A stretch of DNA of 64,000 nucleotides, taken from sequence record NC_010324.1; one strand, written 5' to 3'. Under the pieces are notes generated by a model. The model had not been told where the DNA came from. It made no database searches and saw only the letters and a program-made list of their open reading frames with translations. Position 1 is the stretch's first letter. Each line of letters opens with the position of its first letter. The position numbers and the translations under genes were made by a program. This document shows positions 9,101 through 49,368 of the stretch, in pieces. This DNA is from Escherichia phage phiEco32.

Positions 9101-9109
9101 TAATGTATA
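9101..9109 (+). promoter_or_regulatory. TAATGTATA motif (candidate phage-sigma-dependent promoter element)
   Basis: Exact 9-mer 33 nt upstream of the ATG at 9143, directly after a terminator; the same 9-mer recurs upstream of other genes. Confidence 0.45.
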
Positions 9110-36631: not shown

Positions 36632-36640
36632 TATACATTA
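36632..36640 (-). promoter_or_regulatory. TAATGTATA motif (minus orientation) upstream of the SSB gene
   Basis: Plus-strand tatacatta; ~60 nt upstream of the start at 36572; part of a near-palindrome with a plus-oriented TTATGTATA at 36622-36630. Confidence 0.4.
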
Positions 36641-44559: not shown

Positions 44560-44774
44560 TTCACAACCTTAAATTTGAATGTTGTTGGGTGATAATAGTG
44601 CAACCTGTTAATGGTGTGCTTTGTTTCAAGGTATATCCTGCAAGAGTGACACATGACATGAGTCAAACCGGTTACAGGATTAAACTTAAAGTTGGCGATA
44701 GGCTTCTCTTTCTTACAGAAGCTGCACACTTTATGTGTCATTAGTTCTCCAAAGTTTTCTTCAGAGCTGCCCAT
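44556..44774 (-). CDS. small Cys/His-rich protein (72 aa)
   Basis: CSFC...CHSC pattern; ORF track. Confidence 0.45.
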   Translation of the reverse strand: MGSSEENFGELMTHKVCSFCKKEKPIANFKFNPVTGLTHVMCHSCRIYLETKHTINRLHYYHPTTFKFKVVK

Positions 44775-45397
44775 GAGATTGGGTAGAGTTTAGCCATCTC
44801 TTCATCCAGAGATTTAGCAAACACTCGAACTTCGTATTGAGCGTGAGAGGAGAGTCGCTGACGACACAACTCAAACCAGCCATACAAAGAACCGGTCCAC
44901 ACCCACTCAGTGATCATCCCCTGAGGAAGAACAAATCGAGCTTGCTCTGGTGCAATAAACTCAATCAACTTGTCATATGCTGCTAGAGAAGCTTCATATG
45001 CATCGTTAATCAGTATTAATGCTTCAGCTCGCTCTCCGTCGATGAGTTGAATCCCTGAACCTGCATGGAGGTCCGAAGGTCTCGCAAAAATCTCTTTAGG
45101 GATGAAGACTTCAACTGCTCCATCTTTATACCGCCGGGACATTTCGTTCCACGAGAATCCAACCTGATGCTTGCCCAACTGTCTCGCAATTGCAATAGGT
45201 GCTTTGCATCGGAAACTGACTTGCGGGTGTCGGAATGGGGTAACATGCTTCTCTCTTGCGAGGAAGTTGATGAGACGTTCATCACGTTCATTTAAATCAC
45301 CTTCACGGGTTACGCCAAAGGAAACTCGAGCTGCGTTTACTACGCTACGATCGCTTCCCATAGCTTCGATTAATGTTGCTTGTAGTTGTTCATTCAT
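44741..45397 (-). CDS. thyX: flavin-dependent thymidylate synthase (ThyX)-like protein with divergent signature
   Basis: ThyX-like TPFRH...SFR...QLGKHQVGFSWNEMSRRY; the canonical RHR-x7-S motif reads KHQ here. Confidence 0.65.
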   Translation of the reverse strand: MNEQLQATLIEAMGSDRSVVNAARVSFGVTREGDLNERDERLINFLAREKHVTPFRHPQVSFRCKAPIAIARQLGKHQVGFSWNEMSRRYKDGAVEVFIPKEIFARPSDLHAGSGIQLIDGERAEALILINDAYEASLAAYDKLIEFIAPEQARFVLPQGMITEWVWTGSLYGWFELCRQRLSSHAQYEVRVFAKSLDEEMAKLYPISWAALKKTLEN

Positions 45398-45412
45398 CCG
45401 TGAATATCCTTA

Positions 45413-45688
45413 TTACTTATTGCTCAGGGCTGTGTCCAAAAATGCTTTCAGGTTTGCTTCAGTCTGCATACCAGAGAGGCTGTAGTGTGCACCACTGTTA
45501 CGGTCAGGCACAACGAAAGCAGGGATGCTTCGTACACCATACTTAACAGCTTGTTCACGACCATCACCTTCAAGGATGTTAATCTCTTCCACTTCTACAT
45601 CAAACTCCTTAACAACCTTCTCAAAGGTAGGAGCCATTGCTTTACATGGAGCACACTGATCACTATAAAACTTAATTACTTTAGACAT
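45413..45688 (-). CDS. thioredoxin-like protein (CAPC active site)
   Basis: YSDQCAPCKAMAPTFE matches the thioredoxin WCxPC...AP pattern; SD AAGGA. Confidence 0.75.
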   Translation of the reverse strand: MSKVIKFYSDQCAPCKAMAPTFEKVVKEFDVEVEEINILEGDGREQAVKYGVRSIPAFVVPDRNSGAHYSLSGMQTEANLKAFLDTALSNK

Positions 45689-45936: not shown

Positions 45937-46500
45937 TTAGTAAGACACGTCACCACTTGAATGGGACATGTTGCTCTTGACGAAGTAGCAATACTTGCCA
46001 AGACCTTCATTAATTTCTTGAAGCATACTCTGATCGACTGGGTAAGTGGCTAAATCACCATCAAACTCATCCATCTTCTCAATAATACACATCAAGGTCA
46101 TGCACATATCAGAGAGCATACCGTCCATGTCTAGATCAGCATTACCCTCTGAGAACCAAGCATGAGAGAGATAGTTAGCTGCTGTAGCATCCACTTTAAC
46201 GCAGTGGTAACGCATACGTTCAGCAATACGATCTCCTACCTGTCGTGCGTAATCTTCCAGCTCATCAAACATACCATGAACACCCTGAAATCCTGCACCA
46301 GAGACGTTCCAGTGGTAGTTTTTAGCTTTGATATGCAAGAGTTCCATGTTAGCTTGTAAGCAGCTCAGGATGTGTTCTAGGCTGTTTCCACTAATCATAC
46401 CCTGCATTGTTTCAAGGCGAGAGATTGATAGGTCGGACCGGTCTAACATGCTATAGCTGTCACGACCAATCTCAGGTAAATCAAAAACATTCTTATGCAT
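45937..46500 (-). CDS. Dps / ferritin-like protein
   Basis: NYHWNVSGAGFQGVHGMFDELEDYARQVGDRIAERM aligns with Dps ferroxidase-centre region (HWN, VH.M, D...E); start taken at the Met with SD GGAG (track start 46548 overlaps upstream gene). Confidence 0.65.
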   Translation of the reverse strand: MHKNVFDLPEIGRDSYSMLDRSDLSISRLETMQGMISGNSLEHILSCLQANMELLHIKAKNYHWNVSGAGFQGVHGMFDELEDYARQVGDRIAERMRYHCVKVDATAANYLSHAWFSEGNADLDMDGMLSDMCMTLMCIIEKMDEFDGDLATYPVDQSMLQEINEGLGKYCYFVKSNMSHSSGDVSY

Positions 46501-46822
46501 TTGGGTTTTCTCCATCAAGTTCAACTGAGTTAGCAACGTTACGTGCAATATTATCCATTACCTGCTGGGTAATTACGATGCAGTTCTGTGGGTCTACTGA
46601 CTTAGAACGACCCATTTCAGGGTCATACACCTTAACTCGCTTAGCAGTTGAACCTGTAACCTGAAGAACCTTCAACAGATATCCCTGATTACCAATAGAC
46701 CAAGCAACAACATCACGATTCTTGATAAAGCGACCAAGCATATCACGATGATAAAACTGTTGCATCACCTTGGATTTTGTAATCTCTTCAGTGGGCGGGG
46801 CCACTTTACTCAAATCTAACAT
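46493..46822 (-). CDS. hypothetical protein (109 aa)
   Basis: ORF track; promoter-like motif ~40 nt upstream. Confidence 0.5.
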   Translation of the reverse strand: MLDLSKVAPPTEEITKSKVMQQFYHRDMLGRFIKNRDVVAWSIGNQGYLLKVLQVTGSTAKRVKVYDPEMGRSKSVDPQNCIVITQQVMDNIARNVANSVELDGENPNA

Positions 46823-46861
46823 AACTCTCTCCTGTAAAATACAAATTCTTATTGTACTCTA

Positions 46862-46870
46862 TATACATTT
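46862..46870 (-). promoter_or_regulatory. AAATGTATA (one mismatch to TAATGTATA), minus orientation
   Basis: Plus-strand tatacattt; 40 nt upstream of the start at 46822, the same spacing as the exact motifs. Confidence 0.35.
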
Positions 46871-46894
46871 GAGAGTTATCATATCTACTACCAA

Positions 46895-47104
46895 TCAGTA
46901 GTAAATTACTTTAGACATAAAAGAACCAGTGTTAGGGTCTTCATACCAGCGATGTATGTCAGCGCTTTTTACTATTGTGCCCAGAGTCTTCAACTGTTTC
47001 TTAGCAATACGAGCCTCTTTGCGAGTGTCAAACAATTTGATGTTATCTTTTCTCATGTGTTGCTCAAGATTCCAAACAACATGAATAGCCCACATCTTTT
47101 TCAT
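46895..47104 (-). CDS. small basic protein, member 3 of a tandem three-paralog array
   Basis: 69 aa; shares R/K-rich pattern and C-terminal ...(K/S)(V/I)(I/H)YY with the two neighbours. Confidence 0.5.
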   Translation of the reverse strand: MKKMWAIHVVWNLEQHMRKDNIKLFDTRKEARIAKKQLKTLGTIVKSADIHRWYEDPNTGSFMSKVIYY

Positions 47105-47313
47105 TAGTAATGTACCTTTCCGCTAATATAAACACGACCAGAGGAATACTCTCTGGCCTTATGAATGCTGATGCTCTTGATCATATCCATATTAAACATA
47201 GATTTTTTAAAATCTCGAGCCTGTTGACGAGTGGGTAGTGCAGTCATAGTCATACCACCTGATGCCCACTTAATCTTCGCTAACCAGAACTGTCTCATGG
47301 TGATTGGTCTCAT
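47104..47313 (-). CDS. small basic protein, member 2 of the tandem array
   Basis: 69 aa; stop and start overlap with neighbours. Confidence 0.5.
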   Translation of the reverse strand: MRPITMRQFWLAKIKWASGGMTMTALPTRQQARDFKKSMFNMDMIKSISIHKAREYSSGRVYISGKVHY

Positions 47314-47510
47314 TAATAATAAATCTTACTGTTGGCAATAAAAGAACCTTCGCTATTCACCATAGCTCTTCCTAATGTAACCTTGTTAAGTCTAAAAGTA
47401 GATTTGTATTGATTTTTGACCCTACGTGCGTGCTCTCGAGTCTTAACAAAATCTACAGCTACTAACTCTCCAGTCGTGTTGTCATGTACACGAACAATCC
47501 ACTTTTTCAT
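47313..47510 (-). CDS. small basic protein, member 1 of the tandem array
   Basis: 65 aa; ...FIANSKIYY C-terminus. Confidence 0.5.
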   Translation of the reverse strand: MKKWIVRVHDNTTGELVAVDFVKTREHARRVKNQYKSTFRLNKVTLGRAMVNSEGSFIANSKIYY

Positions 47511-48044
47511 TTACACACCTTTAGATGCAACCACACCTTCAGAGTTATTATAACGACCCTTCACTGCATAGGAGTGTTCCCCTGCATGAGAGTGCTCAAA
47601 CATGACCATCTGACCAACACGCATACCAGCACGAACTCGTAAGCTATGGTGCTTGGTTACGTTGTGGAATTCAAATGTCAGCTTACTACTATTAAACCCT
47701 GCATCAGCCCATCCAGCGTGGAGATGGTTCAGACCACAACGAGCCATAGATGAACGAAGAACAAACAGACTTGAGATGTTATCTGGAAGGTTAAACTCCT
47801 CCATAGAGTGAGCCAAGAAGAACTGACCCGGAGTGATAACCAAACCCTCTTCAGGAATCTTTACTTCCTTCCACTGAAGATTCTCTTTCGCATCAATATC
47901 AACGATGCCATCAGCCTGTTCTTCAACAAGGATAGTATCACCAATACGGATATCCACACTAGCAGCGTTAACATACTTATGCTCCGCATCCAGATAGCCA
48001 TTGTCAATTACATTGTGCAGTTCAATACTTCCTAGTAAACCCAT
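47511..48044 (-). CDS. dCTP deaminase / dUTPase-superfamily protein
   Basis: ASVDIRIGD and VLRSSMARCG motifs typical of dCTP deaminase family. Confidence 0.65.
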   Translation of the reverse strand: MGLLGSIELHNVIDNGYLDAEHKYVNAASVDIRIGDTILVEEQADGIVDIDAKENLQWKEVKIPEEGLVITPGQFFLAHSMEEFNLPDNISSLFVLRSSMARCGLNHLHAGWADAGFNSSKLTFEFHNVTKHHSLRVRAGMRVGQMVMFEHSHAGEHSYAVKGRYNNSEGVVASKGV

Positions 48045-48053
48045 TCTTATTCC

Positions 48054-49367
48054 TTAGTTATTTTCGTCTATTTCAAAAGAGATTCCACGACCCGCTTCAT
48101 CGGCAAACCGAACTGTACGGGTTTGAGGTTCTAATACTTCAGGGTTGTTGGCAATAAAGCGATCAGCGAGATTATCTACCACATCTTGGGCCACACCTTC
48201 ATCAGTCCACACAGCCCTAACAGGTGCGTTGATATCACCAACAGCAAAACCCTGACCAGAGAACTGGTGACGGCTAACAGTCAAACCGTTTGGTCGACCA
48301 CGAGAAGGACTAGCCATCCATCGCTCCATAGAATCACTTGTAATACCCCAAGCTTCTTCAAAAGATGTTCTACGAGTAGGGCTTACTCTTCGTGACTCTT
48401 GTGCTCTACGCATTGCAGGGGCTACAAACACCCCTTCAATTGCATTATGTCGGTTAGGTTCCTCTTCTCGACCAAGCAGATCACCACCCGTGTTAGTTGT
48501 TAAATTTGTCAACCCTTCAGACCAATACGCATGAATCTGACCAGAACCGTGAAGACTAGACATAATCTGAATCTCTTCATAAGGGATTCCAAAGAATCGA
48601 CTCATGTCTCGGTCAACACAATACGAGGGACTTGTCGTATCCTCAGCATAAGTAACCTGACCCCGTTCATCAACCAGATGATTAATCGGTTGAGGTGTAG
48701 GGAGGTACCGAGAGTGGGCCATATATTGGAGCGCAGCGGATGTAGAGGAGAATCTCAACACCTGTGAATTAGGCCACTTCTTATGAACATACTTAATTTC
48801 ACGAGCAGAGACAACTACTGGACAAGGAGAAGTCATAGACAGATATCCATGAGGGGTCATAAATAGATTGTCAAGAGTCATCGCACCACGGCACATCATA
48901 GGAAAATTATCCATAACCTCTTCAATAGAAGTAGGATAATTAAACATGAATTGGATTCGAACCCCATTCCACTGAAATTCAATAATATCAGTGAATGTTA
49001 ACAAAGAGCCTTCAGCGTAGGCTTCATTTGTGGCTTCAGCCAGAAGGGAAGAGTACTCAATATCTTGAGACTCAAGCCACTCTTTCACGTTACTTTCAAC
49101 CTCTCGTCCGAGATCTTGCCACTGGTCATGGCGGATAAAGGTATCTCGAGTTCTTGGTGCCTGTCCTCTGACAATAAAGATATCAATGTCATGAGGTGCT
49201 CTATTATTAAGAACAGCATCACGAACAGCCCCACCAGTGATGATGGGACAAATACAGTCTGGAATCAAGTTGTTGTTAATCAACTGTTCAATGAAGTGAC
49301 GACCAACAGTGATATCAGGTTGTTGAGCAACCTTATCTTCAATTCGGTTAATCGGGATAACAATCAT
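48054..49367 (-). CDS. nucleotidyltransferase (pol-beta superfamily, CCA-adding / poly(A) polymerase-like head)
   Basis: IITGGAVRDAVLNN...PHDIDIFI matches the GGAVRD plus DxD head-domain signature; start at Met 20 of the track ORF, just after the exonuclease stop. Confidence 0.55.
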   Translation of the reverse strand: MIVIPINRIEDKVAQQPDITVGRHFIEQLINNNLIPDCICPIITGGAVRDAVLNNRAPHDIDIFIVRGQAPRTRDTFIRHDQWQDLGREVESNVKEWLESQDIEYSSLLAEATNEAYAEGSLLTFTDIIEFQWNGVRIQFMFNYPTSIEEVMDNFPMMCRGAMTLDNLFMTPHGYLSMTSPCPVVVSAREIKYVHKKWPNSQVLRFSSTSAALQYMAHSRYLPTPQPINHLVDERGQVTYAEDTTSPSYCVDRDMSRFFGIPYEEIQIMSSLHGSGQIHAYWSEGLTNLTTNTGGDLLGREEEPNRHNAIEGVFVAPAMRRAQESRRVSPTRRTSFEEAWGITSDSMERWMASPSRGRPNGLTVSRHQFSGQGFAVGDINAPVRAVWTDEGVAQDVVDNLADRFIANNPEVLEPQTRTVRFADEAGRGISFEIDENN

Positions 49368-49368
49368 T

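Follow-up and report, generated by a model that had tools for sequence, protein, structure and literature searches.

A tandem array of three small basic paralogs in Escherichia phage phiEco32 and its relatives

Directly behind its dCTP deaminase gene (DCD), Escherichia phage phiEco32 carries three very small genes in a row. Are these genes related to one another, how have they evolved, and what might their products do? We analyzed a 64,000-nucleotide stretch of record NC_010324.1, referred to here as the window, in which the three genes occupy positions 46,895 to 47,510. Coordinates are window positions, the copies are named A, B, and C in the order of transcription, and residue numbers follow a family numbering in which the last residue is 69. 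A first-pass annotation had described three consecutive open reading frames (ORFs) of 65-69 amino acids with one-nucleotide overlaps, a basic and similarly spaced residue pattern, and an aromatic C-terminus, and had proposed that they are paralogs. The ORFs lie exactly where it placed them, on the minus strand, and all three products have isoelectric points (pI) of 9.9-10.8 and contain a Trp, a T-R-x-x-A-R-x-x-K motif, and a terminal Tyr.

Paralogy, signature and predicted fold

Pairwise alignment provided marginal evidence of kinship. BLASTP comparisons among the copies gave E values of 9e-4, 3e-4, and 0.09, and shuffle z-scores were 6.8 for A-B, 6.4 for B-C, and 2.4 for A-C. Profile comparisons were decisive. 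Every copy aligned to the whole PHROG 4939 profile (positions 1-67 of 67), with E values of 1.7e-26 for A, 6e-28 for B, and 1e-28 for C. PHROG 4939 probably already includes all three types, and we therefore performed an independent test with hidden Markov models (HMMs) built from the orthologs of single copies. An HMM from one copy's orthologs detected the other two with E values of 1e-8 to 1e-10; among 1249 ORFs, no decoy had an E value below 0.2. Similarly, hhalign comparisons between single-copy profiles returned probabilities of 96.5-98.5%. An absence of significant similarity, the result that would have spoken against the proposal, was thus not what we found, and these comparisons establish that A, B, and C are true paralogs within PHROG 4939, a single family of small proteins. 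Their sequences share only 20-30% identity and the A-B-C order is constant across genera, arguing that the duplication predates the genera. Accordingly, the tandem duplication that had been proposed holds in the sense that the paralogs lie in tandem, while the low identity and shared order point to an ancient event and not to a recent expansion.

To define conserved positions we used an alignment of 44 family members, non-redundant at 80% identity. W5, T27, R28, R32, and an Ile, Met, or Leu at position 50 are present in all 44. K35 and a Lys or Arg at position 52 are each found in 42 members, A31 in 41, a Lys or Arg at position 36 in 40, and the last residue, Y69, also in 40; G59 (34/44) and H51 (30/44) are less strictly kept. 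The resulting family signature is W5, T27-R28-x-x-A31-R32-x-x-K35-[KR]36, [IML]50-H51-[KR]52 in strand 3, G59, and a C-terminal Tyr. At position 36, copies B and C have Lys and copy A has Asn. The most variable segments are the hairpin loop at 12-20, which contains insertions and deletions, and residues 40-46 and 54-58. The net charge is +7 to +10 per copy.

AlphaFold2 modeled copy C, from an 18-sequence alignment, with a pLDDT of 85.5 and a pTM of 0.68. The model contains strands at residues 2-11 and 21-25, a helix at 28-39, and strands at 45-56 and 60-63. A model in which A, B, and C were fused by linkers displayed the same beta-beta-alpha-beta-beta layout for each copy, so that structure prediction, suggested earlier as a check on the three proteins, returned a common arrangement. 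The predicted fold of the family is therefore a sheet of four strands plus one helix. Judging from the positions of these elements in the copy C model, the T-R-x-x-A-R-x-x-K-K motif caps and runs along the sole helix; by helical periodicity, A31 would be turned toward the sheet, and R28, R32, and K36 would line up as an exposed stripe.

Searches for characterized relatives returned little. Copies A and B had no Pfam match and copy C had only noise below threshold (L13e, E 0.1), and a Pfam search with 18 family members yielded nothing consistent. None of the three copies matched NCBIfam. The PADLOC HMMs for defense systems, a library that does not cover anti-defense proteins, gave no match at E <= 1. 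Sequence-profile searches of the PDB found either nothing or the ribosomal proteins uL22 and bL17 at E ~0.5, non-significant leads that are consistent with an RNA- or DNA-binding composition. Structure matches in BFVD were confined to uncharacterized proteins of phiEco32-like phages, and neither PDB nor BFVD provided an informative fold match. The best structural neighbor of the model, the PsaD core domain of photosystem I, has the same beta-beta-alpha-beta-beta arrangement; PsaD is also basic and docks an acidic partner, ferredoxin. A literature search by gene names and PHROG found nothing on these genes. Across Pfam, NCBIfam, PADLOC, PDB, BFVD, and the literature, no result identified a function for A, B, or C or gave support to the takeover or anti-defense role suggested in the first-pass annotation.

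Distribution, reassortment and selection

Within the sequences sampled, only phiEco32-like phages encode the family. When 1.84 billion representative proteins were searched with a profile, 28 clusters were recovered, and a second search of 5.8 billion proteins recovered 88 clusters at 90% identity. All family clusters consist of stand-alone proteins of 64-87 amino acids with no Pfam domain and no fusion, and every genomic context examined was a phiEco32-like phage or phage contig. Orthologs are annotated, as hypothetical proteins, in ~75 Kuravirus-type GenBank records. The window itself represents a Kuravirus-type (phiEco32/SU10-like, Gordonclarkvirinae) podophage, and the 2.5 kb around the array are ~96% identical to CHD5UKE1, TH38, and SU10. 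Orthologs of copy A in related phages have 50-95% identity.

Only two genomic sites are occupied. The first lies between DCD and a gene for a 109-amino-acid protein that is followed by a ferritin/Dps-like gene, and the order DCD, array, 109-amino-acid gene holds in >20 related loci. The second lies between the genes for thioredoxin and ThyX, where related phages have 0-2 extra family members; many (loci L003, L004, L006, L007, L019, L023, and L027) carry one or two of these or an HNH endonuclease gene. Copies at this second site extend to a Salmonella 7-11-like phage of the Grimontviridae. In the window, ThyX and thioredoxin are ~15 nucleotides apart (45398-45412) with no family copy between them. 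Small ORFs near DCD in LAh_8 and Cronobacter 009, found as leads in BFVD, lack the family motif and were rejected.

A comparison of copy number across related phages, also suggested by the first-pass annotation, revealed one to four copies in the array after DCD, the site to which the following counts refer. A single copy is present in LAMP (copy B only), in the metagenomic locus L013, and, as judged from span and feature count, in Bas92. Two copies are found in EK010, SU7, ES17, SR02, and ECBP2 (B-C) and in L009. Three (A-B-C) are present in most Kuravirus genomes and in Nieuwekanaalvirus KBNP1711 and EP335, and four in L011 (A-B-D-C) and L028. Every sampled GenBank array contains a B-type copy, and copy A is the one that relatives most often lack. 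The existing PHROG 4939 entry describes neither function, structure, nor evolution; what the present analysis adds is at least 12 subfamilies, two hot-spots, 1-4(+2) copies, the signature, and a predicted fold.

Relatedness to the window differs from copy to copy. Compared to the window, SU10 is 64% identical in A, 100% in B, and 97% in C, and KBNP1711 is 50%, 53%, and 97% identical in the same order. The corresponding values are 88%, 49%, and 57% for EP335 and 81%, 100%, and 65% for L011. The flanking 109-amino-acid gene stays 91-100% identical where the array copies are mosaic. These patterns indicate that alleles of A, B, and C have been reassorted independently between phages. Every cassette ends in TA(C/T) TA(C/T) TAATG, a repeated junction that results from the conserved terminal Tyr codons and the coupled start of the next gene and that provides in-register microhomology between cassettes. 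The lone copy B of LAMP ends with the junction normally found after copy C. We infer that cassettes are gained, lost, and swapped by recombination at the TAY TAY TAATG junctions.

To compare rates of evolution, we estimated dN/dS by the Nei-Gojobori method in a common set of nine genomes; the values are pooled over pairs, crude, and ignore recombination. They were 0.27 for copy A, 0.24 for copy B, and 0.23 for copy C, compared to 0.03 for DCD, 0.05 for the 109-amino-acid gene, and 0.07 for the Dps-like gene. Thus, the array genes evolve ~5 times faster than their neighbors. Divided by predicted structure, dN/dS was 0.46-0.67 in the loops and 0.19-0.24 in the core. This distribution suggests a scaffold under purifying selection with loops that are much looser or partly diversifying. 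The diversifying selection invoked in the first-pass annotation is in keeping with the fast evolution and the raised loop values; however, dN/dS was below 1 everywhere, and the idea is accordingly plausible and no stronger.

Expression and neighboring genes

At both internal junctions (Table 1), neighboring genes overlap by one nucleotide, the stop codon's final A doubling as the initial letter of the following ATG; each TAATG is preceded by the conserved terminal codons TA(C/T) TA(C/T), and the same junction is found in loci L011, L018, and L017. From their sequence, the junctions appear to couple the translation of A, B, and C. The DCD stop codon adjoins the ATG of copy A without a gap (TAAATG). 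An alternative start at Met6 of copy B would line up with the MKKxW start of copies A and C. Within the 3' part of copy B we noted a hairpin resembling a terminator, GGCCAGAGA-GTATTCC-TCTGGTC followed by GTGTTTATAT; it could be a chance occurrence or an RNA structure that acts on coupling or on readthrough into copy C.

Table 1 Features of the array and its surroundings in the window.
Feature	Position	Strand	Description
Copy A (subfamily S3)	47313-47510	minus	65 amino acids, pI 10.3, C-terminus IYY; SU10 CDS71 ortholog
Copy B (subfamily S1)	47104-47313	minus	69 amino acids, pI 10.8, C-terminus VHY; ortholog of SU10 CDS70 and of the LAMP gene labeled gp70
Copy C (subfamily S2)	46895-47104	minus	69 amino acids, pI 9.9, C-terminus IYY; SU10 CDS69 ortholog
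A/B and B/C junctions	47100-47317; overlaps at 47313 (A/B) and 47104 (B/C)	minus	TAATG
Hairpin in copy B	47136-47158	minus	resembles a terminator
Spacer downstream of copy C	46823-46894		72 nucleotides
Middle/late promoter motif	46860-46870	minus	AAATGTATATA, 10/11 match to the phiEco32 gp36-type tAATGTATAtA
DCD	47511-48044	minus	dCTP deaminase, Pfam DCD E 4e-34, PHROG 1663; conserved upstream boundary of the array
109-amino-acid gene	46493-46822	minus	PHROG 10984; conserved downstream boundary of the array, first gene past the promoter motif
Dps/ferritin-like gene	45937-46548	minus	Pfam: ferritin-like domain only
Thioredoxin	45413-45688
ThyX	44741-45397
CCA-adding-enzyme-like nucleotidyltransferase	48054-49424		two genes upstream of the array
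Sigma-70-like promoter match	53861-53889	minus	TTGTCA-17-TATAAT, 11/12
Sigma-70-like promoter match	49639-49667	minus	TTGACA-17-TATCTT, 10/12

In SU10, CDS69-125 were assigned to the early and CDS25-68 to the middle class by homology to the macroarray classes of phiEco32, the first middle promoter lies upstream of CDS68 and carries tAATGTATAtA, and no terminator follows the early genes (PMC4281155). A, B, and C correspond to CDS71, 70, and 69 (gp69-71 in the phiEco32 numbering) and are thus the last three genes of the published early cluster. The SU10 counterpart of the 109-amino-acid gene is CDS68, a middle-gene product that was seen by mass spectrometry (PMC4281155). In the window, the AAATGTATATA motif lies in the spacer downstream of copy C. 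A promoter motif downstream of the array is conserved in every relative examined, among them LAMP, SU7, and L011, with an exact TAATGTATATA in L013, and the motif appears to mark where the transcription unit containing the array ends. Provisional assignment of the array genes to the early class is supported by this transfer from SU10, whose published classes alone are fine enough to place these genes, in agreement with the description of the proteins as early in the first-pass annotation.

The array is >17 kb downstream of the right-hand end of the window and still further from the early promoters. Both of the strong sigma-70-like matches in Table 1, located upstream of the array and within the early cluster, could be internal early promoters that shorten this distance. 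The window also contains five exact TAATGTATA sites, at 9101, 26014, and 36704 on the plus strand and at 36632 and 42937 on the minus strand; those at 36632 and 36704 are divergent and lie close together. Three middle promoters have been described for SU10 and phiEco32, and the minus-strand sites at 46862 (one mismatch), 42937, and 36632 agree with them.

The two boundary regions of the array have features of their own. The 109-amino-acid gene, which had no Pfam or NCBIfam match, has recognizable homologs in Grimontviridae (Cronobacter 009 and Salmonella PKM.Hi.22.6) and overlaps the start of the Dps/ferritin-like gene. Several GenBank/RefSeq records, including those of CHD5UKE1 and ES17, label the latter an "integrase"; since Pfam detects a ferritin-like domain only, this label is a propagated misannotation. 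On the other side, SU10, Paul, NJ01, and others carry a 68-amino-acid ORF (MNKEEFQELK...) between DCD and copy A (L002 3008-3214, L006 2298-2504). We considered this ORF in SU10 and Paul as a fourth paralog and rejected it, its sequence being unrelated; it is absent from the window at 47510/47511. KBNP1711 and ECBP2 have a different ORF at this position, of 63 amino acids and probably encoding a membrane protein. The DCD/array junction thus appears to be a general insertion hot-spot. DCD itself occurs as two allele types, ~57% identical, in otherwise close phages (L005, L008, L021, and L022), and the Dps-like gene is 98-99% identical in L008, L021, and L022 despite the divergent DCD alleles. 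Bas89, ES17, and SR02 have a divergent, slightly longer DCD together with an HNH endonuclease gene, or an ORF of the same size (510 nucleotides), between DCD and the array. The DCD allele swap looks like gene replacement associated with a homing endonuclease. Finally, ARAGORN detected neither tRNA nor tmRNA genes across the 64 kb of the window, which nevertheless encodes the CCA-adding-enzyme-like nucleotidyltransferase.

Candidate functions

The reading that we favor, tentatively and at somewhat less than an even chance, is that the proteins bind a polyanion, most probably nucleic acid, through a surface whose specificity is tuned by the loops. It is prompted by the extreme positive charge, the Arg/Lys stripe and strand-3 His/Lys, the Trp and terminal Tyr, and a predicted early time of expression at a location among genes for replication and nucleotide metabolism. 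The Arg/Lys/His stripe would, with the invariant Trp and the terminal Tyr, form the surface that binds polyanion, and the variable loops would tune what each paralog recognizes. The proteins would be accessory factors, dispensable in part, that are made early in infection and attach to DNA or RNA of the host or the phage, either aiding takeover or shielding and handling phage nucleic acid. A general parallel is SPO1 TF1 of the HU family, which like these proteins is small, very basic, phage-encoded, and made before the late genes. TF1 differs from the family in having an HU fold with DNA-embracing arms, and we found no sequence or profile similarity between the family and small basic phage nucleoid proteins of this type.

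Several observations weigh against nucleic-acid binding. The surface exposure of the conserved basic residues is deduced solely from the periodicity of the predicted helix and strands, and a high positive charge would equally fit binding to an acidic protein surface. A likeness to the DNA-binding AP2/integrase-type domain (PF00847) was rejected, with an hhalign probability of 1.3%. As to timing, the early class is transferred by homology and the papers are inconsistent: one study loosely terms the nucleotide-metabolism cluster "middle" (PMC8948821). Proteomics of SU10 did not detect CDS69-71, although just 34 of 125 proteins were seen (PMC4281155).

A second explanation, which we consider possible and on balance doubtful, is that the proteins are inhibitors or modulators that target proteins, in line with the takeover or anti-defense functions proposed in the first-pass annotation. 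Every copy would have its own host target, for example a defense component or a housekeeping factor, contacted through its loops, with the basic face docking onto an acidic surface. The position in the early cluster, the restriction of this always stand-alone orphan family to one lineage, the variable copy number with reassorted alleles, and the concentration of raised dN/dS in the loops are all in line with protein targeting, which is as compatible with the evolutionary pattern as the nucleic-acid reading. So is the report that Gordonclarkvirinae are unusually resistant, withstanding most of the defense and restriction systems tested, and that no modification or inhibitor of theirs is known (PMC11990801). 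In being short, lineage-restricted, early, patchy in presence, and faster-evolving than core genes, the family resembles the multi-copy early ORF families for takeover or anti-defense in T4, T5, T7, and SPO1. Unlike in those families, however, the copies here are ancient and fixed in order, and the array is located among replication and nucleotide-metabolism genes, away from where the early region begins near its promoters. Furthermore, in the Pfam, NCBIfam, PDB, and BFVD searches and the literature the family showed no similarity to any characterized anti-defense or takeover protein, its dN/dS never exceeds 1, and its most conserved features make up a generic basic stripe and not a shaped pocket. 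Copy number also argues against this idea: LAMP has copy B only, and Bas92, apparently with a single cassette, belongs to the Bas86-93 group, which is reported to be resistant to restriction-modification (PMC11990801). The position of Bas92 suggests, if weakly, that copies A and C are probably not required for resistance to restriction-modification.

The three proteins might instead be subunits of one hetero-oligomer in a fixed ratio, or accessory or regulatory subunits of DCD and ThyX, an explanation that we judge unlikely. The coupling that takes in the DCD stop codon, the conserved A-B-C order, and the location of both family hot-spots beside genes of the dTMP pathway (one behind DCD, the other flanked by thioredoxin and ThyX) are what one would expect of such subunits. 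However, copy number ranges from 1 to 4 and single-copy phages are viable, and the independent reassortment of alleles is contrary to co-evolving subunits. The linker-fused A-B-C model showed no confidently predicted assembly, with a pTM of 0.31 and a pLDDT of 51.7, a weak test with 10 paired sequences and an artificial linker. The variable copy set, the reassortment, and this low pTM make a hetero-complex of fixed composition unlikely. Small ORFs of unrelated sequence and HNH endonucleases have also inserted at both hot-spots, and the adjacency to DCD and ThyX may therefore reflect only permissive intergenic sites.

Less probable still is that the copies are degenerate DNA-binding modules akin to the AP2/integrase-type domain, left behind by, or mobile with, homing endonucleases at both sites. 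The W-x-V strand, the second strand, and the F-x-T-R-x-E-A-R helix start do superficially resemble the AP2 pattern, W-x-A-x-I ... L-G-T-F-x-T-x-E-E-A-A, hhalign paired exactly those segments, and HNH genes are found at both hot-spots in relatives. In addition to the low hhalign probability, however, 18 family members gave no Pfam AP2 match even at E <= 10, the family has an extra C-terminal hairpin, and no member is fused to a nuclease. That the ORFs are fortuitous or decaying frames that encode no functional protein, as their uniform annotation as hypothetical proteins and the lack of the three products in SU10 proteomics might suggest, can be dismissed almost entirely: the ORFs are kept in the ~75 GenBank phages and 88 protein clusters, have invariant residues, conserved coupling junctions, and a confident predicted fold, and their dN/dS of 0.23-0.27 argues for purifying selection on a protein.

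Returning to nucleic-acid binding, its boldest version is that a lineage-specific fold coats or marks phage DNA, or sequesters nucleic acids of the host or its defenses, early in infection. This could explain the resistance of the Gordonclarkvirinae, with cassette shuffling swapping specificities; we regard it as quite improbable and speculative. More soberly, the family is of an ordinary kind, small fast-evolving early accessory genes of phages, with a clean signature and an existing PHROG entry, and if its members are indeed ordinary accessory DNA-binding factors, the result is a modest one. The family is a reasonable candidate for host manipulation or nucleic-acid binding. The analysis provides handles on it: the signature, a confident fold model, natural variants with one, two, three, or four copies, and residues to mutate. 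Several of the natural copy-number variants plate on E. coli K-12 (BASEL Bas89-92). Kuravirus and its relatives are abundant, broad-host-range phages of E. coli with therapeutic interest, and among their early genes this family is one of few sets that are multi-copy, fast-evolving, and lineage-specific, making it a sensible place to seek the biology of their resistance to defense systems.

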